This document shows positions 8,872 to 38,545 of a stretch of DNA of 64,000 nt, piece by piece. Position numbers and translations under genes: made by a program. The notes under the pieces are model-generated. The model was given only the letters and a program-made list of their open reading frames with translations, was not told the origin of the DNA and made no database searches. Each line of letters starts with the position of its first letter. Position 1 is the first letter of the stretch. The DNA is from Myxococcota bacterium (GTDB taxonomy: Bacteria > Myxococcota > UBA4151). The stretch spans positions 59-64,058 of the forward strand of contig JAYZBQ010000098.1 of the NCBI GenBank assembly GCA_036338695.1, read 5' to 3'.

Positions 8872-8908
8872 GGGGGTCTCCTCGCCCGGGCACCCTGCGT
8901 CGTGAGGA

Positions 8909-8951
8909 CAAAAAAGCAAACAGCCCGCAACGCAGCGGGCTGTTCTTTTTC
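8909..8951 (-). terminator. Rho-independent (bidirectional-looking) terminator after the DUF507 gene
   Basis: The 10-bp stem AACAGCCCGC/GCGGGCTGTT spans 8919-8944 with a 6-nt loop. It is flanked by an A6 run (8910-8915, which is T6 on the minus strand) and a T5 run (8946-8950). Confidence 0.75.
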
Positions 8952-8970
8952 CAACGGGGTTGGTCAGCGA

Positions 8971-9507
8971 CTAGTTGTCGTGTTTTGCCCGCTCGGCGCG
9001 CCGCTTAAGCTCTCGCGCCCGGCGCTGGTACTCGGCTTCAAACGCCGACGAGCCTTCCGGGACGTTGCGCAGGGCTGCGCGCACGTTGCGGTCGATCTCT
9101 TCGTCGAGCGAGAGGTGCTTGGCGAGGACCTCGGTGACGACCTCTTTGAGCTCATCGTCGGAGCCGTAGATCTCTTCGACGTTGCCCGAGTCGAACAGCG
9201 CCTCGAGGACTTGCGTGGTGACGAAGTCGATGCCGTCGTTCGCCAGCGGGAACTCACGGACTTCGGCGATGCTCTTCTTGACCATCGCGTAGCGATCCGG
9301 GCTGAGGTGACGGCGCTGAAGCCCCGCCTTCGCCTCTTGGTTGATACGGTCTTCTTTGTTCATGTAGTCGACCATGACCGTGGACAGGTCGAGCTCGGCT
9401 TCGATGACCTGCGTGTCTTCGATCTCGGCGTACTCACGGCTGCGCAAGAACCGGACGACGTCGTGCGAGATCTTGGGGATGACTTTGCGGTAGAGGTTCA
9501 ACATCAT
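8971..9507 (-). CDS. DUF507 family protein
   Basis: MMLNLYRKVIPKISHDVVRFLRS...; AGGAG lies upstream of the ATG ATG at 9507. The charged helical composition is typical of DUF507. The upstream part of ORF 8971-9672 is Arg/Pro-rich and not protein-like. Confidence 0.6.
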   Translation of the reverse strand: MMLNLYRKVIPKISHDVVRFLRSREYAEIEDTQVIEAELDLSTVMVDYMNKEDRINQEAKAGLQRRHLSPDRYAMVKKSIAEVREFPLANDGIDFVTTQVLEALFDSGNVEEIYGSDDELKEVVTEVLAKHLSLDEEIDRNVRAALRNVPEGSSAFEAEYQRRARELKRRAERAKHDN

Positions 9508-9693
9508 TTTGATCGCTCCTGTCGACGGCTTCGGCGACCCTTTCCGGGGCCGCGAATTCGGTCCAGGGCGGGGCCGCAAACGGCCGTGCTGATCTGTATC
9601 TCGTCGGTCGATAGGGTGCGCTCCACCCCTTGGCAACAAAAATGGGTGGTCGTGCGTTGGTTCGAGGCGCAAAATGCCCGCCTGGAGTCATCG

Positions 9694-22735: not shown

Positions 22736-23083
22736 ATGCAGGTTGGATATTTGGAGATCGTGACCTCTGAGGTGGACGCGGTCAGCGCCGCTTATGCCGC
22801 GTCCCACGGTGTCACTTTTAGCGAGCCGATCGCCGCGCTCGGTGGGGCGGTCGTCGCCTCCCTGGCAGGTGGAGGTCAGCTCGGCATCCGGGCGCCGCTG
22901 CGCGCCGATGAGGAGCCGGTTGTGCGACCCTACATGCTGGTCGAGGACATCGAAGAGGCGCTGCTTGAAGCCCAGCGAGCAGGTGGGCAGGTCGCCGTCC
23001 CGGCGATGCCGCTCCCCGGTCAGGGGACCTGCGCGATTTATGTCCTTGGGGGCGTTGATCACGGCTTGTGGCAGTCTGAATGA
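22736..23083 (+). CDS. VOC/glyoxalase-fold family protein
   Basis: 115 aa, MQVGYLEIVTSEVDAV...GQGTCAIYVLGGVDHGLWQ. An AGGAGGA RBS lies upstream. Confidence 0.6.
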   Translation: MQVGYLEIVTSEVDAVSAAYAASHGVTFSEPIAALGGAVVASLAGGGQLGIRAPLRADEEPVVRPYMLVEDIEEALLEAQRAGGQVAVPAMPLPGQGTCAIYVLGGVDHGLWQSE

Positions 23084-23169
23084 GTCTGGGGCGGATCACC
23101 GATGAGCTGATCACAGCGCTCGAGCCGCTCACCTTCTCGGAGCCGGTGACTCACGTCTAAAACCCGCTG

Positions 23170-23790
23170 GTGTACGCACGGAGCGCGTGGGACCTTTACT
23201 GCGCTAGGTATGGTCAAGGGACCCGGAAGGTCCTTGCGCTCGGGATGAACCCGGGACCTTTTGGGATGAGTCAGGTCGGTGTCCCGTTTGGCGAGATTGC
23301 GCACGTCCGCGACTGGTTGGGGATCGAGACGCCGATCGGGAAACCGCCGGTCGAGCATCCCAAACGCCCAATCCTCGGTTTTGCCTGCACTCGAAGTGAG
23401 GTGAGCGGTCGGCGGCTTTGGGGCTGGGCTAAGGAGACGTACGGTACGCCTGAAGCCTTTTTCGAGACCTTCTTTATCACTAACTATTGCCCGCTGGTGT
23501 TTATGGAGGGACCCAACGGGCGCAACCGGGTGCCCGAGAAGCTCCCCGCGGTCGAGCGAGCGCCGGTGTTTGAGGCCTGCGATCGGGCGCTGCTGCAGAC
23601 GGTCGAGTTGATGCAGCCCGAGCTGATCTTAGGGGTCGGAAAGTTCGCCGAGAAAAAGGCGCAGCAGGTGGTCGGCCACCTGGATGTTCAGATCGGCTCC
23701 GTGCCGCACCCGAGCCCGGCGAGTCCGATCGCCAACCGGGGCTGGTCACCGCTGATGGATGCAGCGCTCAAGGAGCTCGGCGTCCGTTAG
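23170..23790 (+). CDS. SMUG1-type (family 3) uracil-DNA glycosylase; intact ORF downstream of an in-frame TAA (see findings)
   Basis: LGMNPGPFGMSQVGVPFGE and HPSPASPIANRGW are SMUG1 catalytic motifs. The ORF-track start at 23170 is a GTG. The same frame is open from ATG 23080 to TAA 23158-23160 and encodes the conserved N-terminal segment. Confidence 0.8.
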   Translation: MYARSAWDLYCARYGQGTRKVLALGMNPGPFGMSQVGVPFGEIAHVRDWLGIETPIGKPPVEHPKRPILGFACTRSEVSGRRLWGWAKETYGTPEAFFETFFITNYCPLVFMEGPNGRNRVPEKLPAVERAPVFEACDRALLQTVELMQPELILGVGKFAEKKAQQVVGHLDVQIGSVPHPSPASPIANRGWSPLMDAALKELGVR

Positions 23791-23896
23791 AGCAGGAGCA
23801 GCAACCGTCACGAGCCGGTGGCAAAGAGTCGGCGACCCAAGTGGTCGGGCGGTGCAAAAACCTGCGCCGGTGTGTGCGCTGTGCTAACCCGACGCC

Positions 23897-25249
23897 ATGC
23901 GATGGATCGTCATGCTGGTTGCGTTGATGTCAGCAGTCCCGGCGCAAGCTGGGAAGATCTTCCCTCTTTTTCGACCACAGCCTGTGCTCGGTCACGGTGA
24001 GCCGTTGCGGATCGAAGAGGTCGGTCGCTACCTGCGTGATGCGCTGGGTGAGGTGGGCGATTACCAGGTCGAGCTGTTGGATCCGGATCGCACCGAGAAG
24101 CCGTTTGCAAAGAGCTCGAAGGTCGAGCGGCTTGGGAAGCGGTGGCGCTCGGAGCTCGACTTCGCCGAGACGAACCTGAGGCGGAAGAAGCCCGGGCTCG
24201 CCATCAAAGGGGCGCAGATGGTCTGGCGGCGCTTGAGCAAATCGCCAGCCTTAGTACAAGATCCTGAGATCCTGTGTCGGACCTATCTGGTGTACGCCGA
24301 AGCGAGCCTTCAGCTTGGGCGCAAGAAGAAGGCCGAAGAGTGGGTGAAGCGCCTCGCCGGTAGCTGCGCGACCATGTACCGCGCCGGGAAGTGGCGAGCG
24401 AAGTCGAGCCCAGCCTTCCTCGAGTTGGTCCGGAAAACCAAAGCCATCATGAGTCACGTGGCGCCGGCGCAGGTCACGATCTTGACCGAGCAAGCGGGCG
24501 CACAGGTCTTCCTCGATGCGCGGTTGATGGGGACCACGCCTATGCATCTAACGGGGATCCCACCAGGCCCCCACGTCATCCGCGTCGAGGAGTCCAATCG
24601 CAAACCGTGGGTCAAATGGGTGGAGTTGAGCGCAGCGCCGAAGACCCTCCGTATTCAAGGTCAGGCGAACTGGCTCCGGCCGGACGAGGTGGCGCTGCAG
24701 CGGGCGCTTCAGAACAACGTCGTCAATGACGAGGCGGTCGCCGGCGCGCAGGCGATCCTGAAGCGGCTGGCGCCGGGGGCGCCCTACCTGGCGATCGTCG
24801 GTGTGCTCGAGCAAGAGGGCGCCGTGAAGCTGCGCCTGATCCTGATCGATCGGCGAGGACGGATCTTGCGCGTGCCTGAGATCATGGTGGACGAGTCGTT
24901 TTTGGGCTTGGAGGCCGAGCTAGGGCACCTGTTCAAAAATCTCGGCAAGGTGCGCTGGACCGCCCTGAACAAGGGCGTGATTTTCCCAGGGCTGGTGGAG
25001 GCGCAAGGGGTTGCGCCAGAGGTGCGTTTCAAGGCGCTCGTGGAGGTGCGGGGCGCCATTGACTCGGACGATGAGCGCAACGAGGACAAAGACGACGACC
25101 TCGACGACGATGACGAGCAAGAAGAGAAGGATCGGCTGCGCCCGATCTTGCGCGGTGACCGCAAGAAGAAGCCCGCCAGCGCCACGAGCGGTCCGATCCG
25201 ACGGCGCGCTCGGACCTACTCAGACTTCAAGGATGAAGACGATAAATAG
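23897..25249 (+). CDS. Secreted PEGA-domain-like protein with an acidic/basic C-terminal tail
   Basis: Signal peptide MRWIVMLVALMSAVPAQA. PEGA-like segment VFLDARLMGTTPMHLTGIPPGPHVIRVE. The tail is DKDDDLDDDDEQEEKD. Confidence 0.55.
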   Translation: MRWIVMLVALMSAVPAQAGKIFPLFRPQPVLGHGEPLRIEEVGRYLRDALGEVGDYQVELLDPDRTEKPFAKSSKVERLGKRWRSELDFAETNLRRKKPGLAIKGAQMVWRRLSKSPALVQDPEILCRTYLVYAEASLQLGRKKKAEEWVKRLAGSCATMYRAGKWRAKSSPAFLELVRKTKAIMSHVAPAQVTILTEQAGAQVFLDARLMGTTPMHLTGIPPGPHVIRVEESNRKPWVKWVELSAAPKTLRIQGQANWLRPDEVALQRALQNNVVNDEAVAGAQAILKRLAPGAPYLAIVGVLEQEGAVKLRLILIDRRGRILRVPEIMVDESFLGLEAELGHLFKNLGKVRWTALNKGVIFPGLVEAQGVAPEVRFKALVEVRGAIDSDDERNEDKDDDLDDDDEQEEKDRLRPILRGDRKKKPASATSGPIRRRARTYSDFKDEDDK

Positions 25250-25252
25250 CGC

Positions 25253-26470
25253 TCAGTCTTGACGCACGATCAGCGTGTACTCGCCCGCCACACCGAGCGG
25301 ACGCCGCTGGTTGTGGAAGGGCGCAACGATGATCGTCAGCTCCTGCCCTTGGTCGACGTTGAGGTCCATGCGGCAGTTGTAGTTGCGGTTCTCAGCGTCG
25401 ATGTCGTCGTTCTCAGCGACCACTTCGTCTCCGCTCATGATCCGGCACATCGGGTCGATCTCGCTCTCGGTCATCACCGTGAGCCGACCGGTTGCAGGCG
25501 CCGTCAGCGAATACGCGTCAAAGTCGCGCCCCCAGTCAAAGCGCGCCGCCTGTTCGTAGGGCAAGGTCTCAATCGGCGTCGCCGACTCGGCGTCGTCGCC
25601 GTGGTCGTCGTCGGCGAGTCGCTCCCAGCCGAGCGTAAAGGCGCCGGTGCCCCATTCGGCGTTGTAGTGTCGCACCTTCAGGTAGTACACCTCTCCGGCT
25701 GTGAGCGGCATGAAGACGCGGCAGTTCAGCTCATCGCCGCCATCGTCATCACCGGTCAGCACGTCGCCCGCCTCGTTCTCGATGGTGCAGACGGGGTCCA
25801 CGTCGCTCTCGGTGAAGAAGGCGTACATTCCGGTCTCGGCGACCTCGAGGCGCCACATGTCGGCGTCTCCGCAGCCGAAGATGGACTCGGTGCGCTCGGC
25901 GTCGAAGTCGAAGGCTGCGGCGCTCTGCGCGTCGCCACCGACATCGCCGGCTAGCTCCTCACAGGTGCATGTGCCGCTGCAGCCATCGCCGTCGTCGGTG
26001 TTACCGTCGTCGCATTCTTCTTCCACCGTGTCGCCGCCGCCTGGCGATCGGAACCGGTTCCCGCAGGTTGCCCCTTCCGCGCGGCAGCGCTCGTCGCAGC
26101 CGTCGCCCGAGACGCGGTTGCCGTCATCGCACTCCTCGCCGGCGTCGGCTTGCTCGTTACCGCAGTTCAGGAGGCTCTCGTCGTAGCAGGCGCGGTTGCA
26201 GCCGTCGCCGTCACGCTTGTTGCCGTCGTCGCATTCCTCGCCCTCTTCGAGGACGCCGTTACCGCATTCGATGCGCTCTTCTTTGACGCACTCCCGGCTG
26301 CAGCCGTCGCCGTTGCGCGGGTTGCCGTCGTCACACTCCTCGCCCTCTTCAAGAACGCTGTTGCCACAGGTCGCCTCCGGCTCGGTTGAGGGGCCGTTCG
26401 ACTGAGCTTGCAGGGCACACGCGCTGCCGATCAGCGCAAGAAGCGTCCACGAGACGATGAAGCGGTGCAT
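25253..26470 (-). CDS. Secreted protein with 4 myxobacterial-type Cys-rich repeats and two pre-peptidase C-terminal (PPC)-like domains
   Basis: Signal peptide MHRFIVSWTLLALIGSACALQA. Four copies of CGNxxxExGEECDDGNxxxGDGC. Two PPC-like modules (GDADMWRLEV...YYLKVRHYN and DFDAYSLTAP...). GGAG precedes the ATG at 26470. Confidence 0.75.
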   Translation of the reverse strand: MHRFIVSWTLLALIGSACALQAQSNGPSTEPEATCGNSVLEEGEECDDGNPRNGDGCSRECVKEERIECGNGVLEEGEECDDGNKRDGDGCNRACYDESLLNCGNEQADAGEECDDGNRVSGDGCDERCRAEGATCGNRFRSPGGGDTVEEECDDGNTDDGDGCSGTCTCEELAGDVGGDAQSAAAFDFDAERTESIFGCGDADMWRLEVAETGMYAFFTESDVDPVCTIENEAGDVLTGDDDGGDELNCRVFMPLTAGEVYYLKVRHYNAEWGTGAFTLGWERLADDDHGDDAESATPIETLPYEQAARFDWGRDFDAYSLTAPATGRLTVMTESEIDPMCRIMSGDEVVAENDDIDAENRNYNCRMDLNVDQGQELTIIVAPFHNQRRPLGVAGEYTLIVRQD

Positions 26471-26600
26471 TGGAGACTCCGAGTTAATCGCTCCTGAGCA
26501 TGGCCCAAGGGGCATCAGCGCGCAACCGCTCGCTTGCCTAGAACGCCGCACAGAGGTAGGCTCTTTGGCGGTTGATGATGACCCGTTGGAGGCGACGACC

Positions 26601-26951
26601 TTGCGTATCTTGATGCTGGTCCTACTCGGTTTGACGTCAGCCTGTGCCGGCTGGGATGGGCAGGCGAACCTCGACGCGCTCGATGATCAAGAACTCGAGG
26701 CCTTGTGCGGTCATTTTTATGACCTCGCAGGTGGCGAGCCGACGGAAGAGCAGTGCGTCGTGGACGGCGCGGAATACACGGCGACGTTGGGGAGTCGTAG
26801 CGAAGAGATCGCAGCGTGTAAGGCGAAGACCCGTCCAGCCTGTGCCACCCAGCTACTGGTCGACTGCGTCGAGAGCCGTCAAGGCTCCATCTGCGCGAGC
26901 GTGGACACGGAGGCGTGCCGAGCCTACGTCGACTGCGAGCTGGGTACCTAA
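26601..26951 (+). CDS. Small Cys-containing lipoprotein
   Basis: (M)RILMLVLLGLTSAC is a lipobox. GGAGG lies 8 nt before the TTG at 26601 (alternative ATG at 26613). The mature part has 7 Cys. Confidence 0.6.
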   Translation: MRILMLVLLGLTSACAGWDGQANLDALDDQELEALCGHFYDLAGGEPTEEQCVVDGAEYTATLGSRSEEIAACKAKTRPACATQLLVDCVESRQGSICASVDTEACRAYVDCELGT

Positions 26952-26980
26952 ACACCGTGATGAGGATGAGAGGAGAACAC

Positions 26981-28468
26981 GTGCTGCGATTGGTAAGCGG
27001 TCTAGCGGTCGTGGGGATGCTGACAGGGAGCTTTGAGGCGCAGGCGCAGTGCGCAACGTGCGGGAACCCGGCGTTGACCGCCGGCGCCTCGGATCTCGGT
27101 AAAGCGCTGGGTGAGGAGGTGGTGGAGACGCCGGCGCTCACGCTGAGCGGGAGCTACTCGTTCACCAACTTTGATAAGTTTCAAAACGCCGAAGGGGATC
27201 GCTTGACGCCCCTCGAGGCAGGTCTCAACGAAGATTACTACTTGAGCCTTAACGTGTTTGTGCTGAACGCCGAGGTGAGCCACCCGGTCGGCGCAGCGCT
27301 CAGTCTGGCGCTCCCGTATGGGATCGCCGGGTTCAAAAATGAGAGTGAAGAGGGGTCCGACCCGGGGATCGCCGACATTGAAGCGCGCGCACGGTTCGAC
27401 CTCACCAAGCTGCTCGGCTGTTGGTCGAAAGGGACGCAGCCCCGGCTCAACGTCGTAGTCGGCGGCGTGGCGCCGACGGGAGACTTTGTCGCAAGTACGG
27501 ACCTTGGCTCAGCCGAGCGCTACGTCAGCTTGGGGCGGGGTGTCTCGTGGGGGCTCGCTGAGTTCGATCTCCGAGGTTACCTGGAGAATGGCGCAGGGTG
27601 GTATGTGACCGGTGGTCTCCGCACGGCGCTCAGCGCCTATGAGAGCGAAGGCTACACGTTCGAGTGGGGCGATGAGCTGCGCGTCTCGGCGGGTGGGAGC
27701 TTTCAGGTGATCCCCAAGACCATGGGCCTCGGGCTGGGCATGGACTGGAACCAGCGGAGCAAAAGCATCGAGAACGGCGATGAGTTCGCGAACGGCGGGG
27801 GGCAGGACCTGACCGCAAGCCTGACGGTCCAAGGGCGCCTGCCCGGCGATCTGATGGCGAGCCTCGGTCTGCGTTACCCGGTCTGGCGTGAGGTGGTCGG
27901 TACGCAAGTGATCTCGGACCCAAGCGTCTTTGGAGGGATCGCTTACCGGTTCGGCGGCAGTAAGGTCGTCAAGAAGGAAGGCGGCGCCGAGCTGCCCAAG
28001 CCGAACGTCTTACCAGGCGAGGTGCCCAAAGACCCGGAGCTGCTCAAGGTCCTCGGCGACAACCAGGTGACGATCATCGATTACTGGGCTGAGTGGTGCG
28101 TGAACTGCATGAAGTTGATGCCGTACATCGACGCCTACAAAGAGAACAACCCACACATCAAAGTGGTCAAATGGGACGCAACGAAGTGGGAGGTCGAGCA
28201 GTTCAAACGCTTCTTGCCAGCGACCCCTGAGCTGCCCGCCTTGGACATCTACGGCGCGGACAAGCGCCTGATTATCCGCCTCGGCGGCACCGACGTCTTC
28301 AAGTTCCGCGAGCACCTCCCGGCGGGCGTTGATAAGGGCTACCCCGAGGGGTGGAAGCCGCCGGCTGAAAAGAAGGACAAGGGAGACCAGCCCGAGGCCA
28401 CGAGCGACGCTAGCGCCCCAGAGAAATCTTCCCCTCAGCCAGTAGCGCCCGAGCCTGCCGAGGGCTAA
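26981..28468 (+). CDS. Outer-membrane beta-barrel-like domain fused to a C-terminal thioredoxin-fold (TlpA-like) domain
   Basis: AGGAG lies 5 nt before the GTG at 26981 (alternative ATG at 26960). Signal peptide LRLVSGLAVVGMLTGSFEAQA. The sequence has an alternating beta-strand pattern ending in GGIAYRF. The Trx motif is DYWAEWCVNCMKL (CxxC at 28097-28108). Confidence 0.65.
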   Translation: MLRLVSGLAVVGMLTGSFEAQAQCATCGNPALTAGASDLGKALGEEVVETPALTLSGSYSFTNFDKFQNAEGDRLTPLEAGLNEDYYLSLNVFVLNAEVSHPVGAALSLALPYGIAGFKNESEEGSDPGIADIEARARFDLTKLLGCWSKGTQPRLNVVVGGVAPTGDFVASTDLGSAERYVSLGRGVSWGLAEFDLRGYLENGAGWYVTGGLRTALSAYESEGYTFEWGDELRVSAGGSFQVIPKTMGLGLGMDWNQRSKSIENGDEFANGGGQDLTASLTVQGRLPGDLMASLGLRYPVWREVVGTQVISDPSVFGGIAYRFGGSKVVKKEGGAELPKPNVLPGEVPKDPELLKVLGDNQVTIIDYWAEWCVNCMKLMPYIDAYKENNPHIKVVKWDATKWEVEQFKRFLPATPELPALDIYGADKRLIIRLGGTDVFKFREHLPAGVDKGYPEGWKPPAEKKDKGDQPEATSDASAPEKSSPQPVAPEPAEG

Positions 28469-28529
28469 GCTCAACCAAGCGGACCGGGTGATGACTTCGG
28501 AGCCGCTGAGCAGGTGAGGGAGGGCGTTG

Positions 28530-29981
28530 ATGTCGCCACCGATCGATCGTCGTGACTTCGTCCGTTTGAGCTCGGTGGCAGCCCTCGCCGCGCCGACGTT
28601 ACTCGGCGCCTGCGGTGATGAGCCCGAGGCGCCCGCCCCGTCGCTTTGCGGTACCGCCGAGCCGGACGCAGGCGTGCTCTGGGACGTCGAACCCGAGGCG
28701 GTCCGGTTGGACGCTGAGTTGTTTCCGCTACCACCCCAATCTGGCGCGATGCGTGCCACCACCGCCCTGATCTGGGGCTACGGGGAGGGCGTCGATGCGC
28801 TGGACTTCTGGGTCTGGCGAACGGAGGGCGCTGAGCGCTACTTGGTCCACAGCGGCACCGCTGAGACCGCTGATGGCTACGCCAAGGTGGCGCTGGACGC
28901 GCTGGCGGCGGGGCAGTGGTACCAGTTTGTGTGGATGCGCTCGGGGGATGATGAGCCGGTGCGCAGTCAGGTGGGTCGATTTCGCACGGCGATCGAGCCC
29001 GGCTGCGGGGAGCGCTTGGTGGTCGCTGCGACGTCCTGCACCAACCGCCGGTTAGCGCCTTATCGGTCGCTCGAGATGATGGCGGCTGAGCAGCCCGACC
29101 TGTTCTTGCAGCTCGGCGATATGAGCTACAATGACCGGGCGCAGAGCACGGCTGAGTATCGTGCGCTCTGGCATGAGACGCTCTCGGACCCGGGCTACGC
29201 GGCGATTCTGGCGCAGTGCGGAATGTACGTGACCTGGGATGACCACGAGATCGTCGACAGCAGCTCGTACTACGCCATCGACGACGAGCGACGCCGCATC
29301 GCGACCGACGCCTGGTTTGAGACCCTGCCGTCGCCTCGGCTCGAGAACGACCGCTTCTGGGACAGCTACCGTTGGGGTGATACCGCTGAGTTCTTTGTCC
29401 TTGATTGCCGGAGCGAACGCGAGCCTGCGAGCCGGCGCACGCCTGAGGCGGCGTACATTTCACGTGCCCAGATGGAGTGGCTAAAGCAGGGGCTCGCCGA
29501 GAGTCAGGCGGTCTGGAAGGTGATCCTCAACTCGGTCCCGATGACCAACTGGCCCGACGCCGCGATCCTCGAGTCGGATCGGTGGGAGGGGTACGAGGCG
29601 CAGCGCCAAGAGCTGGTCGACTACTTCATTGCGCAGGACCTAGAAGGGGTGGTCGTCGTGAGCGGCGATTTTCACTGCGGATCGGTCTGTCGGTTGGAGC
29701 CGACGGGTCCGGGGCGTAAGTTCTTTGAGATTTTGGTCGGTCCGGGAGCCAACGGCGGGAACCCCTTGGCGTACCTGTTTCAGATGGGCTCAGAGGCTGA
29801 GCGGGCGCGCATCTTTGAGGGTGATCAGTTTGCGTTTTTGCACCACGGGATGTCGACGACGATGCTCACCTTTGATGGTGAGGCGAAGAGTCTGGGCATC
29901 GAGTACGTCGACCCTGAGTCGGGTGACCCGCGCTTTCGCGGCACGTTGTACACCGACGGGCGGCTTGAGACCGGCTCCTAG
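28530..29981 (+). CDS. phoD: PhoD-family alkaline phosphatase/phosphodiesterase (Tat signal plus lipobox)
   Basis: Twin-arginine motif DRRDFVRL followed by LLGAC. Metallophosphatase motifs LGDMSYND, WDDHEIVD, VVVSGDFHCG. Confidence 0.82.
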   Translation: MSPPIDRRDFVRLSSVAALAAPTLLGACGDEPEAPAPSLCGTAEPDAGVLWDVEPEAVRLDAELFPLPPQSGAMRATTALIWGYGEGVDALDFWVWRTEGAERYLVHSGTAETADGYAKVALDALAAGQWYQFVWMRSGDDEPVRSQVGRFRTAIEPGCGERLVVAATSCTNRRLAPYRSLEMMAAEQPDLFLQLGDMSYNDRAQSTAEYRALWHETLSDPGYAAILAQCGMYVTWDDHEIVDSSSYYAIDDERRRIATDAWFETLPSPRLENDRFWDSYRWGDTAEFFVLDCRSEREPASRRTPEAAYISRAQMEWLKQGLAESQAVWKVILNSVPMTNWPDAAILESDRWEGYEAQRQELVDYFIAQDLEGVVVVSGDFHCGSVCRLEPTGPGRKFFEILVGPGANGGNPLAYLFQMGSEAERARIFEGDQFAFLHHGMSTTMLTFDGEAKSLGIEYVDPESGDPRFRGTLYTDGRLETGS

Positions 29982-31984
29982 GGGCAGGGGGTATCCAGCG
30001 CTGCGGGGCCGCTGATCGTCGCCCCTTGAGGCGTCCCAACGCTCGCTAAAAAGCAGGTGTACTGAAAACGTGCAGCGTCTTGGTTGAACAGGACGTAGTG
30101 CCCTTTGATGTTCTCGGAGGCGTACTGAATGACTGCGCCGGTTTTGCCGTTGATGTTGCCTTTGACGGGGTAGGATGTCGCTTCTTGTCCCGACAAGCGC
30201 AGCGACGCGGGAATGAAGGGTTCGACCTCCGGACCGACGAGCGGCATCTTGAGGTTGACCGCAAGGGCTGCCTCGGCGCGCGGTGAAAAGTAGCCGTCGA
30301 TGATCCCCGCGGGCATCAACACATGTTTGGCAGGTATGCTGTCGAAGGGCTCGGCGATCAGGCGGTTCGCTTTGGTCACCGGGTCGACCATGTCCCACAC
30401 GTTCTGCATCGCGTGCAGCAGCGGGTGATTGCGCTCGATCGGTCGGCCGGGCTGGAGGAAGGCTTGCAGCACGCCTTGGACGTCGAACGGCTCGACGGCG
30501 TCGGTCGCGATCTCCGCCATCGACCCCCCGGAGCCCGACAACACGATCGCTTTGAGGCGGGGGTCGATCGCCGCCCAGCTCACCCCGATCGTTGAGCCCA
30601 TCGACTGACCCATACCGGTGAGGCGCTGCGGGTTGAAGCGAGCCGTCGTCGCGCCGCCGAGGTCGGCGCCGTCGAGCTGGTCGCTCGGGATCTGCGCCGC
30701 CAGAAGGAGCCGTGACAGGAGGGTCAACTCCATCGCTGCCGCGTTGAAATTGGCGATCGTTCCGCCCGGGTTGCCGGTGAGGTTGTACAGCATCAGGCCG
30801 GTGGTATCGGATGGGTTGTGCCTGTCGCCGTGCAGCGGGAAGTCAAACCCAAGGCTGGCGACGCCACGCCGAGCCAACCACTCGGCAGGACCGGTCCCTG
30901 GCGTCGCATCCGGTGCGTCGTCGCGCTCTTCCTCGGGGCCTCGGTTGATCACCTGCATCCACTCGCCGCCCGAGCCGTGGGCGTAGACGGTCAGGGGGTA
31001 CCCCTCAGCCGGCTGAGGCGACTTGGGGACCGCGAGGACGACCCTCATGTCCTGGTAGCGCTGGATCACGGGGTTGCCGTCGTCGCCCCAAGCGATGCGC
31101 CCCTCGCTCGCTTCCGCGAAGGGCGGGTTCCCGAGCTGGATACGTGGCAGGCTGACGCGCGCCGTGAGCATCACATAGCTTGCGTCTTCGAACTGTTGCT
31201 CTGAGCGCGTCCAGTCCTGACTGAGCTGCGGGATCGGTTGGGTCTCAGCCCACGCACCGAGCTTGCGCAGCATCCACTCATGGTCTGCGGTGGTAAAGAC
31301 GCTGGCCGCCACGACACGGTCGGCCTCGACCCGCCCGTCGTCCTTGAGCGCCTGACGGAGCGTCTTGAAGTCTTCGCGTGCTTGCTCGGAGCCGTCGATG
31401 TCCTCGAACGCTTTGTGGAAGGCCTCGGAGCGGCCGAGCGGCTGGCCTTGGGTATCTTGGACCGCATCGGTGACGACCAAAGCGTATTGGGTGTTCGGGC
31501 GGCGAACAAAGCCCGGCGCAGGCAGCGCAGCGAGCAGGTTGGTCGGTGCGTAGCGATCACCCTCGGTGTCAAAACTGACCTCCAGGGGGAAGCGTCGCCC
31601 GCGCTCAGCCGAGCTTGGGTCCACGTCGATGAGGAAGACGCTCGAATCCGGCGAGACCGAGGCGGCGGCGGTGCTGGGGAGGGTCGATGCATCGAGGCTG
31701 CCGGAAGCACGCACGAAGACACCGGAGGACAGCCCCCATCTACCCTGCAAGGACTCTTCACCCGCTTCGAGCCACATGGCGACCATGGCAGCGTTCCAGT
31801 CCCCCGGCCACTTCTCGAGATCCCAGGTGCCGTCGGACTCGATGCGCAGGTCGCTCGGGATCGGTAGGTCCCAAAAGCTACCCGCTGGATCCCAGATCGC
31901 CTGCGTCGGACGCTCCTCCCAAGCAGGATCACAGCCCCCTAAGAGCGCCACAAGGCAGAGCACGTTGAGTGGTCGTCGTTGCAT
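29978..31984 (-). CDS. Lipoprotein, alpha/beta-hydrolase-like (GxSxG serine hydrolase)
   Basis: MQRRPLNVLCLVALLGGC is a lipobox. VYAHGSGGEW and GMGQSMGSTIG (nucleophile elbow). Confidence 0.6.
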   Translation of the reverse strand: MQRRPLNVLCLVALLGGCDPAWEERPTQAIWDPAGSFWDLPIPSDLRIESDGTWDLEKWPGDWNAAMVAMWLEAGEESLQGRWGLSSGVFVRASGSLDASTLPSTAAASVSPDSSVFLIDVDPSSAERGRRFPLEVSFDTEGDRYAPTNLLAALPAPGFVRRPNTQYALVVTDAVQDTQGQPLGRSEAFHKAFEDIDGSEQAREDFKTLRQALKDDGRVEADRVVAASVFTTADHEWMLRKLGAWAETQPIPQLSQDWTRSEQQFEDASYVMLTARVSLPRIQLGNPPFAEASEGRIAWGDDGNPVIQRYQDMRVVLAVPKSPQPAEGYPLTVYAHGSGGEWMQVINRGPEEERDDAPDATPGTGPAEWLARRGVASLGFDFPLHGDRHNPSDTTGLMLYNLTGNPGGTIANFNAAAMELTLLSRLLLAAQIPSDQLDGADLGGATTARFNPQRLTGMGQSMGSTIGVSWAAIDPRLKAIVLSGSGGSMAEIATDAVEPFDVQGVLQAFLQPGRPIERNHPLLHAMQNVWDMVDPVTKANRLIAEPFDSIPAKHVLMPAGIIDGYFSPRAEAALAVNLKMPLVGPEVEPFIPASLRLSGQEATSYPVKGNINGKTGAVIQYASENIKGHYVLFNQDAARFQYTCFLASVGTPQGATISGPAALDTPCP

Positions 31985-32139
31985 GGTGTTCTTCCTCGTC
32001 GGTGCGTTTTCTTTGAGCGATGACGGCTTGGGCCGCAACCCTTGCGCCAGCCTGCCGATGACTCAACTGACGCACATAGCTCGCTGCTCGCATCGAAGCG
32101 GAAAGCTTGCTAAGAGGCAAAGGCACGGAGGCGAATCGT

Positions 32140-33234
32140 ATGCTCACCCCAGTGAATCTTCAACGCAATCAAGCGAACTCGATGCAACGGCTCGGTGGTC
32201 AGAACCCACTGCAGCAGGTCGGGACCGGTCTCGCACAGCAAGGACGGCTCTACGCCGACGCCTTTGAACGCAGCGGGAACATGCTGCGCCAAGGCGCTCA
32301 GAACCTGGGCGCAGGCATCGCTGGGGCGGGCGCTCAGGCGGCTGACAACTTCCGCCTCTCGACAGCGCTTGGCGAGAGCGCGAGCGGGGGCTGGGGCTTT
32401 GGTGGGCGCGCGGGGTATTCGACCAAGCTCGTCAACACCAAGCATGATGCGCACACCTTCGCCGATCGTCAGTGGAGTAACCGGCCGGACTCAGAAAACT
32501 CCGACAACGGCACGGGGATCCCGATTAACGCGACCTTGTTTAACGTCGGCGCACGCCGGTCGGTGACGGCCGCGACTGCGAGCGCCGAAACGAGCGTGGG
32601 CGGTGTCGACCTGACCGGTGCGATCTACGCAGGACGCCTCGGTGGCATGACCAACGCCAACGCAACCGTCGACCTCAACAGCGCAACGGTGAAGGCAAAC
32701 GCTGGCGTACGCGGTGAAGCCCACCTCGTGGGTGTCTCGGCGAGCGCCAACCGGCGTATCGGTACGGACGCGCTGAACACGACCTCCTCGGTCAAGGGCG
32801 ACGCCTTTGTCGGCGCAGACGCAGGCGCCAACGTCGGCGTGAACTTCAACCCGCGCAGCGGCAGCGCTGGGGTCAGCGCGGGGCTTGACGCCTTCGCTGG
32901 GGCGAAAGCCAAGGGCAAGGTGCGCCAGTCACTCGGTGTGGCGGGTGAGAACATCGGCGCCGTCGGTGTGAGCGGTGAGGCCTGGGCCGGGATCGGCGCC
33001 AGCGCCAACGCCACCGCCGGCTTTGAGGACGGCAAGTTCAAGCTGAGCGGCTCAATTGGGGCGGCGCTGGGCGTGGGCGGCAAGGTCGGCTTCGACGTCG
33101 AGGTGGACGTCGTCGGCACGGCCAAGGCTGCCGTCAAAGTCGGCTCGGATGCTATCGATGCTGCCAGTGAGGTCGCAGGAGATATTGCCAACGCCTTCAG
33201 TTCGGGTTGGGATAAGATCTCTTCACTCTGGTAA
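32140..33234 (+). CDS. Hypothetical Gly/Ala/Asn-rich repeat protein (no signal peptide)
   Basis: GGAGG lies 8 nt before the ATG at 32140. About 364 aa. The C-terminal 200 aa consist of degenerate roughly 20-aa G/A/V-rich units (GDAFVGADAGANVGVNF, GAVGVSGEAWAGIGASANATAGF, GSIGAALGVGGKVGF). Confidence 0.6.
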   Translation: MLTPVNLQRNQANSMQRLGGQNPLQQVGTGLAQQGRLYADAFERSGNMLRQGAQNLGAGIAGAGAQAADNFRLSTALGESASGGWGFGGRAGYSTKLVNTKHDAHTFADRQWSNRPDSENSDNGTGIPINATLFNVGARRSVTAATASAETSVGGVDLTGAIYAGRLGGMTNANATVDLNSATVKANAGVRGEAHLVGVSASANRRIGTDALNTTSSVKGDAFVGADAGANVGVNFNPRSGSAGVSAGLDAFAGAKAKGKVRQSLGVAGENIGAVGVSGEAWAGIGASANATAGFEDGKFKLSGSIGAALGVGGKVGFDVEVDVVGTAKAAVKVGSDAIDAASEVAGDIANAFSSGWDKISSLW

Positions 33235-33249
33235 GCACAAGGTGCACTG

Positions 33250-34431
33250 ATGACGACATCCATCGATGATCTTCTGGACACGGGACGCCTCGACGAGGCG
33301 TCCCGTCGTCTTTCTGAACAACTGCAAAAGGGTCCGGCGTCCGCAGACGCTTTGGTCGCGCAAGGGCGCTTGCTCGGCGCCCAGCGCGATCTAGAGGGCG
33401 CGCTCCAAAGCCTCGAAGAGGCGCTGGGGCTGGACCCGTCGCACGCACGCGCCCGAGGGTACCGCGGCGTCCTGCTGTACGAAATGGGGCGGCAGGGCGA
33501 GGCGCGCCCTGACTTGATGGCCGCCGCCGAGCAAGGGATCGCCGATGGCGCGATCCACTTTGCGCTGGCGCGCAGTTTGGCAGCAGCCGGCGAGCTCAGC
33601 GCTGCGCTGACCGCAGCGGACCAGGCTGCGGATGATCAGCCGCAGAACTGGGCGTTCCAGTTCGTGCGGGCGCGGATTCTAAGTGACCTAGGGCGTTACG
33701 ATGAGTCTCTGGAGGCGCTGCGCGTCACCGTGCGTTGTGATCCCAGCCAAGAGGAGCCATGGATCGTGCTGTGTACGATCTTGGTGAACCTCGGTGAGAC
33801 GCGTGATGCCATCACGAACCTGCAGACCGCGCTGCGCCACGTACCGAACACCGACCGGCTCAAGGAGTTGCTGGCGCATGCGGCCCTGGCTCAGGGAGAC
33901 GTCGAGCTGGCGACCCACCAGCTCGAAGAACTCAGCCGGGCACATCCGCAGGATGCGACGACGCTCGGTAACTTGGCGCTGTGTTATGTCGCAGGCGGAC
34001 GGGCGCAGATGGCTGAGACCGTCTACCGAAACGCCATCGAACTCGCTCCAGCAGACGCCACGCTCCACTACCAGCTGGCTTCATTGCTTGAGGACAAGGA
34101 GGGCGAGCAGGCGCTGCACGAGGCGGTCGAGCACTACCGTCAGGCGATCGCTGCGAACGATCAAATGTGGGAGCCGTGCAGCGATCTCGGGCGGCTGCAT
34201 GTGACGCAGGCTGAGATCCAAGACCTCGATCGGGCCTTTGAGTTGCTCGAGCGGGCGCGCAGCTTGGGCGGTGATCGCCCTGAGATTTTGATGAACATGG
34301 CGCTTGGCTTCGCCCACAAAGGGGAGAACGCAGCCTGCGCGAAGCTGTGCCGACAGGTTGAGGCGCATCCGGATGCGGAGAACGCCCTGAAGGATCAGGC
34401 GCACGCGCTCGCCAAACACGTCAGCGGCTGA
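33250..34431 (+). CDS. TPR repeat protein
   Basis: 393 aa with repeated 34-aa A/L/G/Y-patterned helices (ALVAQGRLLGAQRDLEGALQSLEEALGLDPSHARA and similar). Confidence 0.8.
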   Translation: MTTSIDDLLDTGRLDEASRRLSEQLQKGPASADALVAQGRLLGAQRDLEGALQSLEEALGLDPSHARARGYRGVLLYEMGRQGEARPDLMAAAEQGIADGAIHFALARSLAAAGELSAALTAADQAADDQPQNWAFQFVRARILSDLGRYDESLEALRVTVRCDPSQEEPWIVLCTILVNLGETRDAITNLQTALRHVPNTDRLKELLAHAALAQGDVELATHQLEELSRAHPQDATTLGNLALCYVAGGRAQMAETVYRNAIELAPADATLHYQLASLLEDKEGEQALHEAVEHYRQAIAANDQMWEPCSDLGRLHVTQAEIQDLDRAFELLERARSLGGDRPEILMNMALGFAHKGENAACAKLCRQVEAHPDAENALKDQAHALAKHVSG

Positions 34432-34435
34432 GCGC

Positions 34436-35773
34436 ATGGGGTCCGTCGAGCTCTTTTTACTCTGCATCGCTGCGGTCTTCTTGATCGGTGTCGTGGGCGA
34501 GCTGGTCTTCGCTCGCACGGGCGTTCCAGACGTCGTGTGGCTGATCGTCGTCGGTGTGTTCATGGGGCCGGTTTTTGGGTTGGTCGAGCGCGACCTGCTC
34601 ATGGACATTGCGCCGTTCTTTGGCGCGCTGACCTTGGTGATCGTCTTGTTCGATGGCGGCGTGCGCCTCCGCTTGGGTGAGCTGATGTCGGCGGCGCCGC
34701 GCAGCCTGTTACTCGCGGTCAGCGGTTTCGTAGGGGCCGTGCTCGCCATGGCTGCGGTGAGCATGTTGTTCGCCAAGTTGGGGCTCTTACCGAAAGCGTC
34801 CTGGACCTGGATGCACGGGCTCATCCTCGGCGCCATCGTCGGAGGGGCGAGCTCGGTGGTGATCATGCCGGCGCTCGACCTCGCCGGGCTCGACGAGCGC
34901 TTGAGCAACCTGCTCAAGCTGGAGTCAGCGCTCACCGACGTGTTGTGCGTGGTGGGCGCCATCACCTTGATCGAGCTCGCGGGCGGGGGCGCCTTCGATA
35001 AAGACGCGGTGCTGTCGACGCTGGGCAAGAGCTTTGGCATCGGTTTGCTGTATGGCGTGCTCGGCGGGCTCCTATGGATCGTCCTGCACCGCCTCTGGGG
35101 CGGCTCGAAGCATGCGTATCCGATCACGCTGTCGGGGCTCTTGATGCTCTATGTGGCGACCTCGCGCGCTGGCGGCAGCGCCGCACTTGCGATCTTGGCG
35201 GCGGCGGTGGTGATCGGCAACGCCCGCTCGGTCACCCAGCTGCTCAAGATGAAAGACGCAGTCGCCCTCGAGCTGGACGTCGAGCGTTTTCATGGCGTCG
35301 TCAGCTTCATGATCAAGAGCTTCTTTTTCTGCTTCATCGGCTTGATGTTGTCGCCGCCCTGGTCGCTGATCGGTGTCGGCGCCGCGCTCGGCCTCGCCCT
35401 GCTCGCAGTCCGCTGGCCCACGGCGCAGCTGGCGCTGCGCGGCGCGGGTTTCTCGAAGGGTGAGCGAGGCTTGGTGGCGGTCTGCATGCCGCGCGGTATG
35501 GCGGCTGGCGTGCTGGCGATCCTTCCCGCTCAGGCGGGTATCGCCGGTATGCAGGAGCTCCCCGTGGTGGTCTTTAGCTGCGTGGTGGTCACGATCCTCG
35601 CCTTTGCGGTGGGGATGCCCGTCATGACGCAACGCATCGAGCAGGAGGCGGCAGCGACAGACGGTGATGATGACCCGGGCGGCGGCTTGGAGGCGTTGCC
35701 GTTGACCGCAACCGAAAGCTCGACCGAGAGCGCGTCAGCCGAGCTCGAGCACCCGACCGTACCGCTTACCTAG
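34436..35773 (+). CDS. Cation:proton antiporter (Na+/H+ exchanger family)
   Basis: Polytopic membrane protein: LFLLCIAAVFLIGVVGELVFARTGVPDVVWLIVVGVFMGP...LVIVLFDGG, typical of the CPA N-terminus. Confidence 0.8.
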   Translation: MGSVELFLLCIAAVFLIGVVGELVFARTGVPDVVWLIVVGVFMGPVFGLVERDLLMDIAPFFGALTLVIVLFDGGVRLRLGELMSAAPRSLLLAVSGFVGAVLAMAAVSMLFAKLGLLPKASWTWMHGLILGAIVGGASSVVIMPALDLAGLDERLSNLLKLESALTDVLCVVGAITLIELAGGGAFDKDAVLSTLGKSFGIGLLYGVLGGLLWIVLHRLWGGSKHAYPITLSGLLMLYVATSRAGGSAALAILAAAVVIGNARSVTQLLKMKDAVALELDVERFHGVVSFMIKSFFFCFIGLMLSPPWSLIGVGAALGLALLAVRWPTAQLALRGAGFSKGERGLVAVCMPRGMAAGVLAILPAQAGIAGMQELPVVVFSCVVVTILAFAVGMPVMTQRIEQEAAATDGDDDPGGGLEALPLTATESSTESASAELEHPTVPLT

Positions 35774-36452
35774 CCGCGGTGGCGCAGGTTGAGACGCCTG
35801 CGCCCACGATGTTCATGTCGGTGTCTTCGGCTTCGACCTGCATCGACCCGTCTCGACCGGACACGCGCAGGACCTTGGTCGACTCGCCCATGCCGTTTTG
35901 TCGGACGAAGATGAAGAAGTCACCGCCCCAGTTGGCGAAGGCGAAGGTGTCGATGGTGTAGGGGTTGGGGAAGCGCTCCAGGTTGATGGAGCGCTCGATG
36001 CGTGCGTTGACCTTGTTGAGCTCGACGACGCGTGCCGGGGTCTCGAGCGGGAGGATGGCCCAGAGCTGTCCGAGCCGGTTGCCGGTGAGCTCCGACTGAC
36101 TGGGCAGGCGCCCCACGTTCTCCATGGTCCAGTTAGCGACGTTGAGGCGAGCGAGCTGCGAGCGGTTGGCGACAAAGAGCTCATCTTGCCAGCCGTTCGC
36201 TGAGGTCGTCGCGAAGCCCATCCCAAAGTGACCAAAATCGCTCTCGTAGTCGGTCTCTTCACACCCCATCGTCCCCAGATTCACCGAGTAGAGGGTGTCG
36301 TCGTAGTAGCGTACGTAGGCGAACCCGTCGCGAGCGATGGACATCGAGGCGGGGCGCCCGGCGAACTGCCCGCAGTCGAGATCCCCCACGTGCTGGAACA
36401 CGGCTTCTCGCGTGTCGTAGTAGTGGATGGATTCGGTCTCCTTATCGATCAC
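35766..36452 (-). CDS. Hypothetical globular (beta-rich) domain ORF; in frame with upstream lipoprotein ORF 36486-36761 across a single TAA
   Basis: 228-aa ORF whose only start is a GTG. It has no signal peptide. The 11 codons between the TAA (36486-36488) and the GTG are open and read NDCKGLEDAIY. Confidence 0.6.
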   Translation of the reverse strand: MIDKETESIHYYDTREAVFQHVGDLDCGQFAGRPASMSIARDGFAYVRYYDDTLYSVNLGTMGCEETDYESDFGHFGMGFATTSANGWQDELFVANRSQLARLNVANWTMENVGRLPSQSELTGNRLGQLWAILPLETPARVVELNKVNARIERSINLERFPNPYTIDTFAFANWGGDFFIFVRQNGMGESTKVLRVSGRDGSMQVEAEDTDMNIVGAGVSTCATAAR

Positions 36453-36485
36453 ATAGATGGCGTCCTCGAGCCCTTTGCAGTCGTT

Positions 36486-36761
36486 TTACGGCGCTGGGTT
36501 GGCGGGCGGTTTCTCCGTCCGATCAGGGTCCCGCTCGTCCGTGTTGGGCTCGCGCTCGTCATCACGGTGCGGGGCGTTGTGGTCATCATCTTGCGGCTCG
36601 TCGTCGCGGGTGGGCGCTGCGTTGACGCCAGTATCGTAGAACTCGCTGGTCCCTGCGTCGACCACCACGCGTCGCTCGCCGTCGGCAACGCTGGCATAGT
36701 CGGGTCCGCATCCGATGAGCGTGAGGGTGATGAGGCAAGCGGGGGTGAGAGTCTTCGACAT
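36486..36761 (-). CDS. Lipoprotein signal peptide plus disordered acidic linker (N-terminal part of a split gene)
   Basis: MSKTLTPACLITLTLIGCG is a lipobox. It is followed only by a low-complexity D/E/P-rich linker and ends at a TAA in frame with ORF 35766-36452. Confidence 0.55.
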   Translation of the reverse strand: MSKTLTPACLITLTLIGCGPDYASVADGERRVVVDAGTSEFYDTGVNAAPTRDDEPQDDDHNAPHRDDEREPNTDERDPDRTEKPPANPAP

Positions 36762-36821
36762 GCTGGTTCTCCACGATGGTTGATAGGAACGGGCTTCATC
36801 TAAAGTACCTCCAAAGTTATT

Positions 36822-36851
36822 TTGTAAAAGCGATAAGTCCTGTCTTATATG
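36822..36851 (+). promoter_or_regulatory. Putative sigma70-like promoter with an embedded LysR-type dyad (ATAAG-N6-CTTAT)
   Basis: This is the only clearly AT-rich stretch in the window. TTGTAA lies at 36822-36827, then a 17-18 nt spacer, then TTATAT/TATATG at 36845-36851. The dyad is at 36833-36848. The stretch lies between the divergent lipoprotein gene and the LysR gene. Confidence 0.35.
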
Positions 36852-36893
36852 AGCAGGATTTTTGAACTAAACTTAGCGCAAAGAGGGAGGCTC

Positions 36894-37799
36894 ATGAACA
36901 TCACATTGGATCAGCTGCTGGCGCTGGAGGCGATCGTTCGGACCGGCAGCTTCGCGCGCGCTGCCGCCGAGATGCACCGGGTGCCCTCTGCGATCAGCTA
37001 CCTGGTTCGAGGTTTGGAGTCTGCGACCGGTCTTGAGCTGTTTGATCGCAGCAAACGACAGGCGGTCCTGACCCCCGCCGGGCGGCGGCTGCTCGCCCAG
37101 GCTCAGGGCGTGCTCGAGGGGGCGCATCAGCTTGAAGCGCTTGCGGTCGAGCTGCGCTCGGGTTGGGAGCCGGAGCTGCGCGTCGTCGTCGATGGCGCCT
37201 TGCCTTTTGGCGCGATCAGCGCCGTCCTTAGGCGCTTCGCCGATCCGGACATTCCCACCTTTTTGCGCGTGGACGTCGAGTATCAAGAGGGGGTGCTCTA
37301 TCGGTTCGAGAAGGGACCCGCTCAGATCGGATTGGTCCTGGGTTTTGAGGGTGGGGGCGGTGAGGAAGGCTTTGACTGTCAGCCGCTCGGTCCGCTCGAG
37401 TTGGTGTTGGTCGCTTCGCCGGATCACCCGCTCGCAGCTGTCGAACTCACCGACGAATTGCGCGCACAGCACGCCGAGCTGGTGGTGCGCGACTCGTCAC
37501 CTGATTTTGAGTTGACCAGCAAACCGTCCTTTATGGGCAGCCGCAACATCGTCTACTTGTCCGACTTCTTCAGCAAGCGCGTCGCGTTGATCGATGGCGC
37601 AGGTTACGGCTGGATCCCGTATCACTTCGTGCGCGACGACCTCGACGCCGGGACGCTCACGTTGCTCAAGGCCGAGAGCAACCGATGGACCTATCATCCA
37701 CAGTTGATCGTCCGCGAGGGGCATGAGCTCGGCCGCGCAGGTCGGCTCTTCGTTGAGACGCTCTCGCCGCCACTCGCTGGCCTGAATGCGCTCAGCTAG
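36894..37799 (+). CDS. LysR family transcriptional regulator
   Basis: N-terminal wHTH LDQLLALEAIVRTGSFARAAAEMHRVPSAISYLVRGLE. GGGAGG precedes the ATG at 36894. Confidence 0.9.
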   Translation: MNITLDQLLALEAIVRTGSFARAAAEMHRVPSAISYLVRGLESATGLELFDRSKRQAVLTPAGRRLLAQAQGVLEGAHQLEALAVELRSGWEPELRVVVDGALPFGAISAVLRRFADPDIPTFLRVDVEYQEGVLYRFEKGPAQIGLVLGFEGGGGEEGFDCQPLGPLELVLVASPDHPLAAVELTDELRAQHAELVVRDSSPDFELTSKPSFMGSRNIVYLSDFFSKRVALIDGAGYGWIPYHFVRDDLDAGTLTLLKAESNRWTYHPQLIVREGHELGRAGRLFVETLSPPLAGLNALS

Positions 37800-37972
37800 C
37801 GGCGTTGCCAGGTGTAGATGTAGCGACCATCGACGGCGACGTCCTCAGGACCGTTGCGATAGTGCAGCCTCAGAAACCATGAGACGTCCTCTGCGTTGAA
37901 GCAGTTCGCTGACATCTTGTACTCCCAAGCCACCACCGCCAGCTCCGTAGCCAGTCCCGGATAAGGCGTCAT
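37796..37972 (-). CDS. DUF3105 C-terminal fragment (58 aa; below the ORF-track size cutoff)
   Basis: Own translation: MTPYPGLATELAVVAWEYKMSANCFNAEDVSWFLRLHYRNGPEDVAVDGRYIYTWQRR. The PYPGL...AW segment continues the DUF3105 domain of the upstream ORF. It is in frame with that ORF across TAA-GTC-ATG. Confidence 0.6.
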   Translation of the reverse strand: MTPYPGLATELAVVAWEYKMSANCFNAEDVSWFLRLHYRNGPEDVAVDGRYIYTWQRR

Positions 37973-37975
37973 GAC

Positions 37976-38545
37976 TTATCGAAGCGAGCCGGTCTCGTCG
38001 CCCTCATGCGCGTCCACGAAGGCGCGGATGGCGTCCTTGGTCTCGTCCGACGCGCAAGGGTGGTAGAGGAAGGCTACGCCTCCGTGCTCGAGGTTGTGCA
38101 ACCAGCGCTGCGGCGGGAGGTAGGTGTACTCGCCCCAGCGCGCCCAGTAGGGTCGGTGAGGTCCGCTCGATGGCGCCAGACGCTCGTAGGTGACCGGCTC
38201 CGGCAGGTAGATGTGGGTCCGGTCTTGGTTGGGGCGGTGGATGCGGGTGCCCTCACCGCAGGCACCTGCCGCCCACGAGGGGTCATCGCAGGTGTAGTCT
38301 GTACGCCAATCGGAGGTCGCCTCCCAACAGGTCTCCGGCACCAGAGGCGGACCGAGTCCGCCCATGACCTCGCCAGCGTCCGGATCGGCTGGCCCAGCAT
38401 CTAAAGTCGCCGTCGGGAGCGGGTCTGGACAGGCAAAGCCTGCCTCGGCGCCCGGCGTGATCGAGCCGGCGTCAGGTAGCGTCGACACGTCACCTTCGGC
38501 GCAGGCGGCGGCGATCAGGAGGGTGGTCAGGAGCGAGGGTCTCAT
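37976..38545 (-). CDS. DUF3105 family lipoprotein, N-terminal part (ends at an in-frame TAA)
   Basis: Lipobox LLIAAAC. DUF3105 core is PSSGPHRPYWARWGEYTYLPPQRWLHNLEHGGVAFLYHP. Confidence 0.7.
   Translation of the reverse strand: MRPSLLTTLLIAAACAEGDVSTLPDAGSITPGAEAGFACPDPLPTATLDAGPADPDAGEVMGGLGPPLVPETCWEATSDWRTDYTCDDPSWAAGACGEGTRIHRPNQDRTHIYLPEPVTYERLAPSSGPHRPYWARWGEYTYLPPQRWLHNLEHGGVAFLYHPCASDETKDAIRAFVDAHEGDETGSLR

Follow-up and report, generated by a model that had tools for sequence, protein, structure and literature searches.

In-frame TAA codons in three genes of a reef-associated Myxococcota contig: private transversions, probably recent losses of function

Why should three genes of a GC-rich bacterium each be interrupted by a single in-frame stop codon, and why should that stop be TAA every time? 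The question is raised by a 64,000-nt stretch of a Myxococcota metagenome-assembled genome (MAG; GenBank contig JAYZBQ010000098.1, positions 59 to 64,058 of the forward strand), here called the window, in which a SMUG1-family uracil-DNA glycosylase gene and two genes for certain or probable lipoproteins are broken in this way. An earlier note on this DNA had placed the stops at 23158, 36486 and 37976, and all three were borne out, in frame and with coding sequence on both sides. Each is a single G:C>T:A transversion (TAC>TAA, GAA>TAA and TAC>TAA, respectively) private to this MAG contig; the orthologous codons all lie one substitution from the stop, and related contigs have a sense codon at the three sites in 14/14, 5/5 and 10/10 cases. 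The ancestral codons can thus be read directly, the stops are private and the window holds no other lesions. Taken as a whole, these observations are best explained, if with no great assurance, by recent and real loss-of-function alleles. Three independent, very recent single-base nonsense mutations would have inactivated three genes, all dispensable, in the strain that gave rise to the MAG, and the population sampled would carry the resulting loss-of-function alleles either as segregating variants or as newly fixed ones. TAA would act as a terminator at these sites as at any other, the nearby downstream start codons would be incidental and the products truncated and non-functional, while the restriction to TAA may have been helped somewhat by mutation towards A/T in GC-rich bacteria.

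The window has a G+C content of about 65%, and its nearest species-representative genomes are Myxococcota MAGs with amino-acid identities of at most 78%. Near-identical contigs (95.6-99.9% nucleotide identity) are present in Tara metagenome assemblies, Logan assemblies and one 'WANG21' assembly, and the window is about 98.2% identical to long 'pilon' contigs, the largest of which reaches 3.7 Mb. The Tara and reef names of the samples indicate a coral reef as the source, and the window belongs to a reef-associated population of uncultured Myxococcota from which samples have been taken repeatedly. This repeated sampling supplies direct comparators for each stop: contigs L008-L021 for the first, L001, L005 and L022-L024 for the second, and L022-L029 together with L005 and L006 for the third. 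A private change is defined here as a window base that differs from the related contigs. The close-comparator set consists of the 10.6 kb covered by at least two close contigs, these contigs having been fetched around the stops.

The first stop lies in the glycosylase gene (23080..23790, plus strand; 236 codons), which is interrupted at codon 27. The gene matches the Pfam UDG family PF03167 (E=1.8e-11, domain residues 44-216) and the Geobacter SMUG1 structure, PDB 5h93 (E=8e-79 over residues 3-235). The TAA (23158..23160) replaces Tyr27 through a C>A change at 23160 (TAC>TAA) and is aligned with the Tyr of the HVYNPL motif in solved SMUG1 structures. Position 23160 is C in each of the 14 related contigs (L008-L021), giving TAC and hence Tyr, where the window has A. 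Intact 236-aa SMUG1 proteins, 98-100% identical, are encoded on more than 14 other contigs, and one of them (P0121, present on 11 contigs) is the window protein apart from the stop. Four codons downstream a GTG (23170..23172, plus strand) serves as the start of a 206-aa fragment (P0128) in the source annotation, with no Shine-Dalgarno-like sequence upstream of it. The stop precedes the whole UDG domain, and a product restarted at this GTG would be without the conserved N-terminus. The same window also holds an intact MutY homologue (HhH-GPD and NUDIX_4 domains with a Cys4 cluster motif; 3382-4419) and UvrC (9720-11571).

The second stop interrupts a lipoprotein gene of 331 codons (35766..36761, minus strand) at codon 92. 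Its product shows a signal peptide with an LIGC lipobox, an acidic linker and a conserved C-terminal domain, and a Pfam search of the 331-codon lipoprotein gave no match. The stop (36486..36488, minus strand) replaces Glu92 through a plus-strand C>A change at 36488 (GAA>TAA), and separates the signal peptide and variable acidic linker from the conserved C-terminal domain. C is found at 36488 in 5/5 contigs (L001, L005, L022, L023 and L024), which thereby encode Glu, where the window has A; a more distant orthologue on L002 (67% identical) likewise has Glu at this position, within the sequence PPENDCKGLED. Intact 331-aa orthologues are encoded on L001 and by the cluster members P0255, P0256, P0259, P0260 and P0264-P0267, and the natural terminator of the window gene, itself a TAA, lies at the same residue as in these orthologues. 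A GTG twelve codons after the stop (36450..36452, minus strand) is taken in the source annotation as the start of a 228-aa fragment (P0258) without a signal peptide; upstream of it (GTG 36452) there is only a weak GAGGA, about 12 nt away. Of the 18 changes private to the window in the close-comparator set, half, lying between 36057 and 36564, fall in this gene of about 1 kb. These nine changes (5 synonymous, 3 missense including two Glu>Gly, and the stop) look more like those of a natural allele, diverged or decaying, than like errors, and the cluster could be either a recombined divergent allele or the outcome of relaxed selection after inactivation.

The third stop lies in a gene of 249 codons (37796..38545, minus strand) for a DUF3105 protein, a probable lipoprotein, and interrupts it at codon 190. 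The Pfam match (PF11303, E=5e-30) covers residues 115-236, so that the stop falls inside the domain. The TAA (37976..37978, minus strand) replaces Tyr190 through a plus-strand G>T change at 37976 (TAC>TAA). G is found at this position, giving TAC, in 8/8 close contigs (L022-L029, 98.7-99.9% identical), and A, giving TAT, in L005 and L006 (95.6% identical), so that ten of ten contigs carry a sense codon where the window, with T, has a stop. The corresponding alignment column is Y or W in 14 homologues, and the protein P0244, found on 10 contigs, is identical to that of the window except for Tyr at the stop. An ATG two codons after the stop (37970..37972, minus strand) would start a 58-aa C-terminal fragment; no Shine-Dalgarno-like sequence is present upstream of it (ATG 37972), and a restart here would split the DUF3105 domain. 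One Tara contig (L007, from sample SAMEA6043136, aligned to the window over its positions 1-1655 and 99.76% identical) terminates at window position 37977, one base short of the mutated base. An end at this point suggests that the assembly graph of an independent sample branches here, and hence that the site is polymorphic, although L007 was found through the truncated-product look-up, which selects for such ends, and the probability of a chance coincidence is estimated at roughly 2-5%. The two broken lipoprotein genes (35766-38545) flank a LysR-family regulator gene (36849-37799, plus strand) within 2.8 kb, and the two may have been lost together as one module.

At each of the three sites the truncation removes an essential part of the protein, be it the UDG domain, the link between signal peptide and conserved domain, or the integrity of the DUF3105 domain, while strong conservation of the intact proteins (P0121 on 11 contigs, P0244 on 10) extends over contigs whose DNA sequences differ. 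Six-frame scanning for stops with coding-like sequence on both sides returned only these three true interruptions in the window. Other candidates were set aside: a TAG at 46440 and a TGA at 51867 mark ordinary gene junctions (MpaB-like/TPMT and P450/NMO, respectively), and within 38577-41483 and 8467-9700 the apparent stops belong to frames antisense to real genes. A Pfam scan of the remaining genes in the window showed no truncated domains. From 13 to 34.4 kb all other gene ends coincide with gene calls on related contigs, and from 34.4 to 42.7 kb gene lengths and order are as on L001 and L022-L024. Fragmented copies on another ENA contig (34,338 bp) result from frameshifts and not from these stops.

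Set against known kinds of sequence, the three genes most nearly recall nonsense pseudogenes or segregating loss-of-function alleles, in which a single base change turns a sense codon into a stop in an otherwise intact conserved gene of one lineage, the orthologues being intact and under purifying selection. They differ from such alleles in that all three events give the least expected stop by one class of transversion. Scaling the close-comparator set gives about 54 private synonymous changes per 64 kb, for which about 6.7 nonsense changes would be expected neutrally and about 1.7 if nonsense were purged at the missense rate; three such changes are compatible with young, weakly purged mutations.

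The explanation that competes most seriously with this one is that the TAA codons are consensus errors, introduced by sequencing, assembly or polishing of this MAG, and that the genes of the organism are intact. Private internal stops are a known assembly artefact, those that differ between near-identical genomes being often of this origin (Cooley & Wright 2024, PMC11017572). The stops considered here resemble such spurious pseudogenes in differing between near-identical sequences and in being confined to one assembly, with the sense codon in 5-14 other assemblies per site; contig L025 (Logan, SRR31054613), for example, shares 2,351 nt with the window and departs from it there only at the third stop and one other private site. 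The nonsense share of private changes is also high (3/18), though among comparators fetched around the stops, and a claim that nonsense is hugely enriched was withdrawn on account of this ascertainment bias. The contig does not otherwise behave like an inaccurate one. It shows no indels in comparison with four relatives (L001, L008, L019 and L022), a profile that is not long-read-like, and it has about as many singletons as other contigs. Half of the private changes are synonymous (9 synonymous to 9 non-synonymous), whereas random error predicts about 27% (P=0.03 against an all-error model). Moreover, only 2-4% of random substitutions create a stop, so that three stops would imply some 80-140 errors per 64 kb, an implausible number in a 71-kb contig. 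Inspection of both strands for 15 nt to each side revealed no sequence or methylation motif shared by the three sites. The suggestion of a systematic assembly artefact in the earlier note therefore holds in so far as the stops are seen in this assembly alone, but sits poorly with a contig that is free of indels and rich in synonymous private changes. Consensus error is accordingly regarded as a doubtful but serious candidate, and we infer instead that the changes are biological and that their common pattern arose by chance. Two narrower mechanisms were also considered and rejected. An N-to-A or miscall-towards-A artefact is inconsistent with plus-strand changes of C>A, C>A and G>T and would not favour TAA over TAG or TGA, and dislocation mutagenesis by copying of a neighbouring base fits the first and third sites but not the second.

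The earlier note had proposed a G:C>T:A bias of the 8-oxoguanine (8-oxoG) type, and all three stops are indeed changes of this class. An in vivo G:C>T:A mutator or oxidative-stress episode, for instance in hyperoxic host tissue, would suit an organism that is coral-reef associated, judging from the sample names. The spectrum of three lesions indeed looks like that of a MutY/MutM-deficient mutator. The other substitutions of the lineage, however, show no G:C>T:A excess. In comparison with the clade of 98.2% identity the window has 143 private sites (118 synonymous, 25 non-synonymous) among which transitions dominate, and in comparison with the close contigs it has 18 over 10.6 kb (9 synonymous, 6 missense and 3 nonsense). 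G:C>T:A accounts for 1/15 of the other private changes near the stops and 10/143 overall (Fisher P=1.0), and at four-fold sites for 6/79 changes, the lowest per-site rate of all classes. Since only 5.9% of G:C>T:A changes create a stop, a random process of this kind that yields three stops per window should have left about 9.6 further changes in the 10.6 kb, where 1 is seen (P=7e-4). This deficit argues against an in vivo 8-oxoG mutator and equally against an oxidative-damage sequencing artefact, the form of consensus error that would be specific to G:C>T:A. A pure G:C>T:A process would in any case give 60% TAG and only 26.5% TAA. The bias noticed at the stops is therefore real for these three changes but fails as an explanation of them.

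The earlier note also pointed out that one of the broken genes encodes a DNA repair glycosylase. As a source of the G:C>T:A changes it does not serve, the gene being of SMUG1 type and the MutY homologue of the window being intact. SMUG1 removes uracil and oxidised pyrimidines and does not act on 8-oxoG:A mispairs, and its loss raises G:C>A:T rather than G:C>T:A. The MutY homologue (the only one of mutY, mutM and mutT to lie in the window) is full length, with the catalytic Glu and Asp and the Cys4 cluster motif. A mutator or oxidative episode is thus an improbable source of the stops.

The restriction to TAA is nominally unusual. One-step nonsense changes were enumerated from the codon usage of the window under five mutation spectra, and the expectation in the earlier note that a GC-rich genome should give mostly TAG or TGA proved sound: TAG is expected at about 57-61%, TGA at 13-26% and TAA at 16-27%. 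The expected TAA share is 20% under a uniform model, 17% under a transition-biased model, 19% under an AT-biased model, 16% with the empirical four-fold-site spectrum and, as already given, highest under a pure G:C>T:A process. The nominal probability of three TAA in three is 0.004-0.019, and the joint probability of three TAA all arising by G:C>T:A is 1e-4 to 1e-3, values that are post hoc, refer to n=3 and concern a pattern picked by a reader that screened many. Given TAA, the probability that all three changes are G:C>T:A is 0.04-0.15.

These two nominal probabilities, which the favoured explanation leaves to chance, belong with several other findings that weigh against it. The TAA alleles occur in no other assembly: in an exact look-up of the truncated products P0128 was a one-member cluster and the 91-aa fragment had no record, while the sole record of the 189-aa product was the contig-end coincidence of L007. 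Nor do two of the genes show any independent sign of decay, the SMUG1 gene having no private changes besides its stop and the DUF3105 gene only one, at 38129, which is synonymous. Recent loss of function is nevertheless the account preferred here, with the TAA-only pattern most likely a small-number coincidence, best treated as unconfirmed pending a genome-wide tally.

Two further regularities had been noted among the stops. The sharing of a TAA-AAC context by two stops was confirmed, for the first and second; the probability that two of three stops have the same following codon is about 0.08 (three times the sum of squared codon frequencies, 0.0276). The in-frame starts described 2 to 12 codons downstream are likewise present (GTG at +4, GTG at +12 and ATG at +2). 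An in-frame ATG or GTG is found within 12 codons of 45% of random codons, giving a probability of 0.09 that all three sites have one.

A further candidate explanation is that TAA is decoded or bypassed, whether by an ochre suppressor tRNA peculiar to this strain, by context-dependent readthrough where AAC follows TAA or by a restart of translation at the downstream ATG or GTG codons. According to one proposal, in-frame stops are widely but only briefly read through in prokaryotes (Belinky et al. 2021, PMC7918605). TAA alone is seen (P of about 0.01), start codons do follow closely, and two of the three replaced residues are Tyr, so that an ochre suppressor inserting Tyr would give back the very residue lost; the remaining one lies in a variable acidic linker. 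As in known recoding, TAA stands in frame where homologues have a residue. Against this, neither the stops nor their context are conserved in any relative (5-14 related contigs per site), even at 99% identity, and the cases number three in about 55 genes. The replaced residues (Tyr, Glu, Tyr) are not uniform, and two Tyr among three routes to TAA is unremarkable (P of about 0.2). Start codons occur at chance level and without convincing Shine-Dalgarno sequences, and the restarted products would lack the SMUG1 N-terminus, lack the lipoprotein signal peptide or split the DUF3105 domain. Global reassignment of TAA had already been discounted, correctly: the eight natural terminators listed for the window are all TAA, TAA ends 9 of about 50 open reading frames (ORFs) in a rough gene map, and the genes ending at natural TAA terminators within 13-42.7 kb have the same ends or lengths in relatives. 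Reassignment was rejected on these terminators, on the mixed residues replaced and on the sense codons of the relatives. Searches of the 64-kb window for tRNAs (ARAGORN) and Rfam elements found none, and thus no suppressor tRNA either. Readthrough and reinitiation, as put forward in the earlier note, thus find little to support them in stops that are absent from all relatives, and bypass of any kind is very unlikely.

TAA and TAG are read as sense in recoded phages and some bacteria, and E. coli has supC-type ochre suppressors. An ochre-suppressing activity of this sort, such as that of a supC-like tRNA-Tyr whose anticodon is UUA, would render TAC>TAA nearly neutral, though its presence in this strain is very improbable. 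If it were present, only in-frame stops of the TAA type would accumulate, TAG and TGA nonsense still being purged, and the cost would be low, TAA being the rarest natural terminator in this GC-rich genome.

No systematic process, be it a mutator, a damage artefact, recoding or reinitiation, is therefore supported, and the kind of feature is one already known. If the alleles are real, one strain has undergone three fresh gene losses, of a glycosylase for uracil and oxidised bases and of two lipoproteins that flank a LysR regulator, an observation that would be mildly useful to studies of how single strains in host-associated populations lose genes. Should the alleles be errors, the products of 206, 91 and 228 aa in the GenBank annotation are fragments of genes that the population carries intact. 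Restriction to TAA would gain interest only if it proved systematic genome-wide.

Several other features of the window and its relatives were recorded. Next to the DUF3105 gene lies a gene for a 968-aa STAND-type protein (38577-41483, minus strand) with a guanylate/adenylate cyclase domain, an AAA ATPase and TPR repeats, whose antisense frames are coding-like and give rise to false 'interrupted ORFs'. The long-read 'pilon' contigs of relatives contain indels that fuse or split genes, as with the PEGA and TPR genes split in L020 and L021; the errors lie in the assembly of the relatives' contigs and not in the window. The window encodes a topoisomerase VI pair (16498-19424), here in a bacterium, comprising a B subunit (HATPase_c/Topo-VIb_trans) and an A subunit (TP6A_N/Toprim), and preceded by a 163-aa membrane-protein ORF in an arrangement kept in relatives. 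An apparent split of the B subunit gene in the window was dismissed, the difference being a 1-bp deletion in L018 (at about 3300-3360) that fuses the 163-aa ORF to Top6B (779 aa). Towards the end of the window, a large protein (58298-60526) has RCC1-like repeats (PF25390, E=1.6e-60) with weak matches to fibrillar-collagen C-terminal and fibrinogen C domains, a eukaryote-like mix of a kind often seen in host-associated bacteria. The protein at 60531-61751 matches TMEM43 (PF07787, E=1e-63) over its full length.

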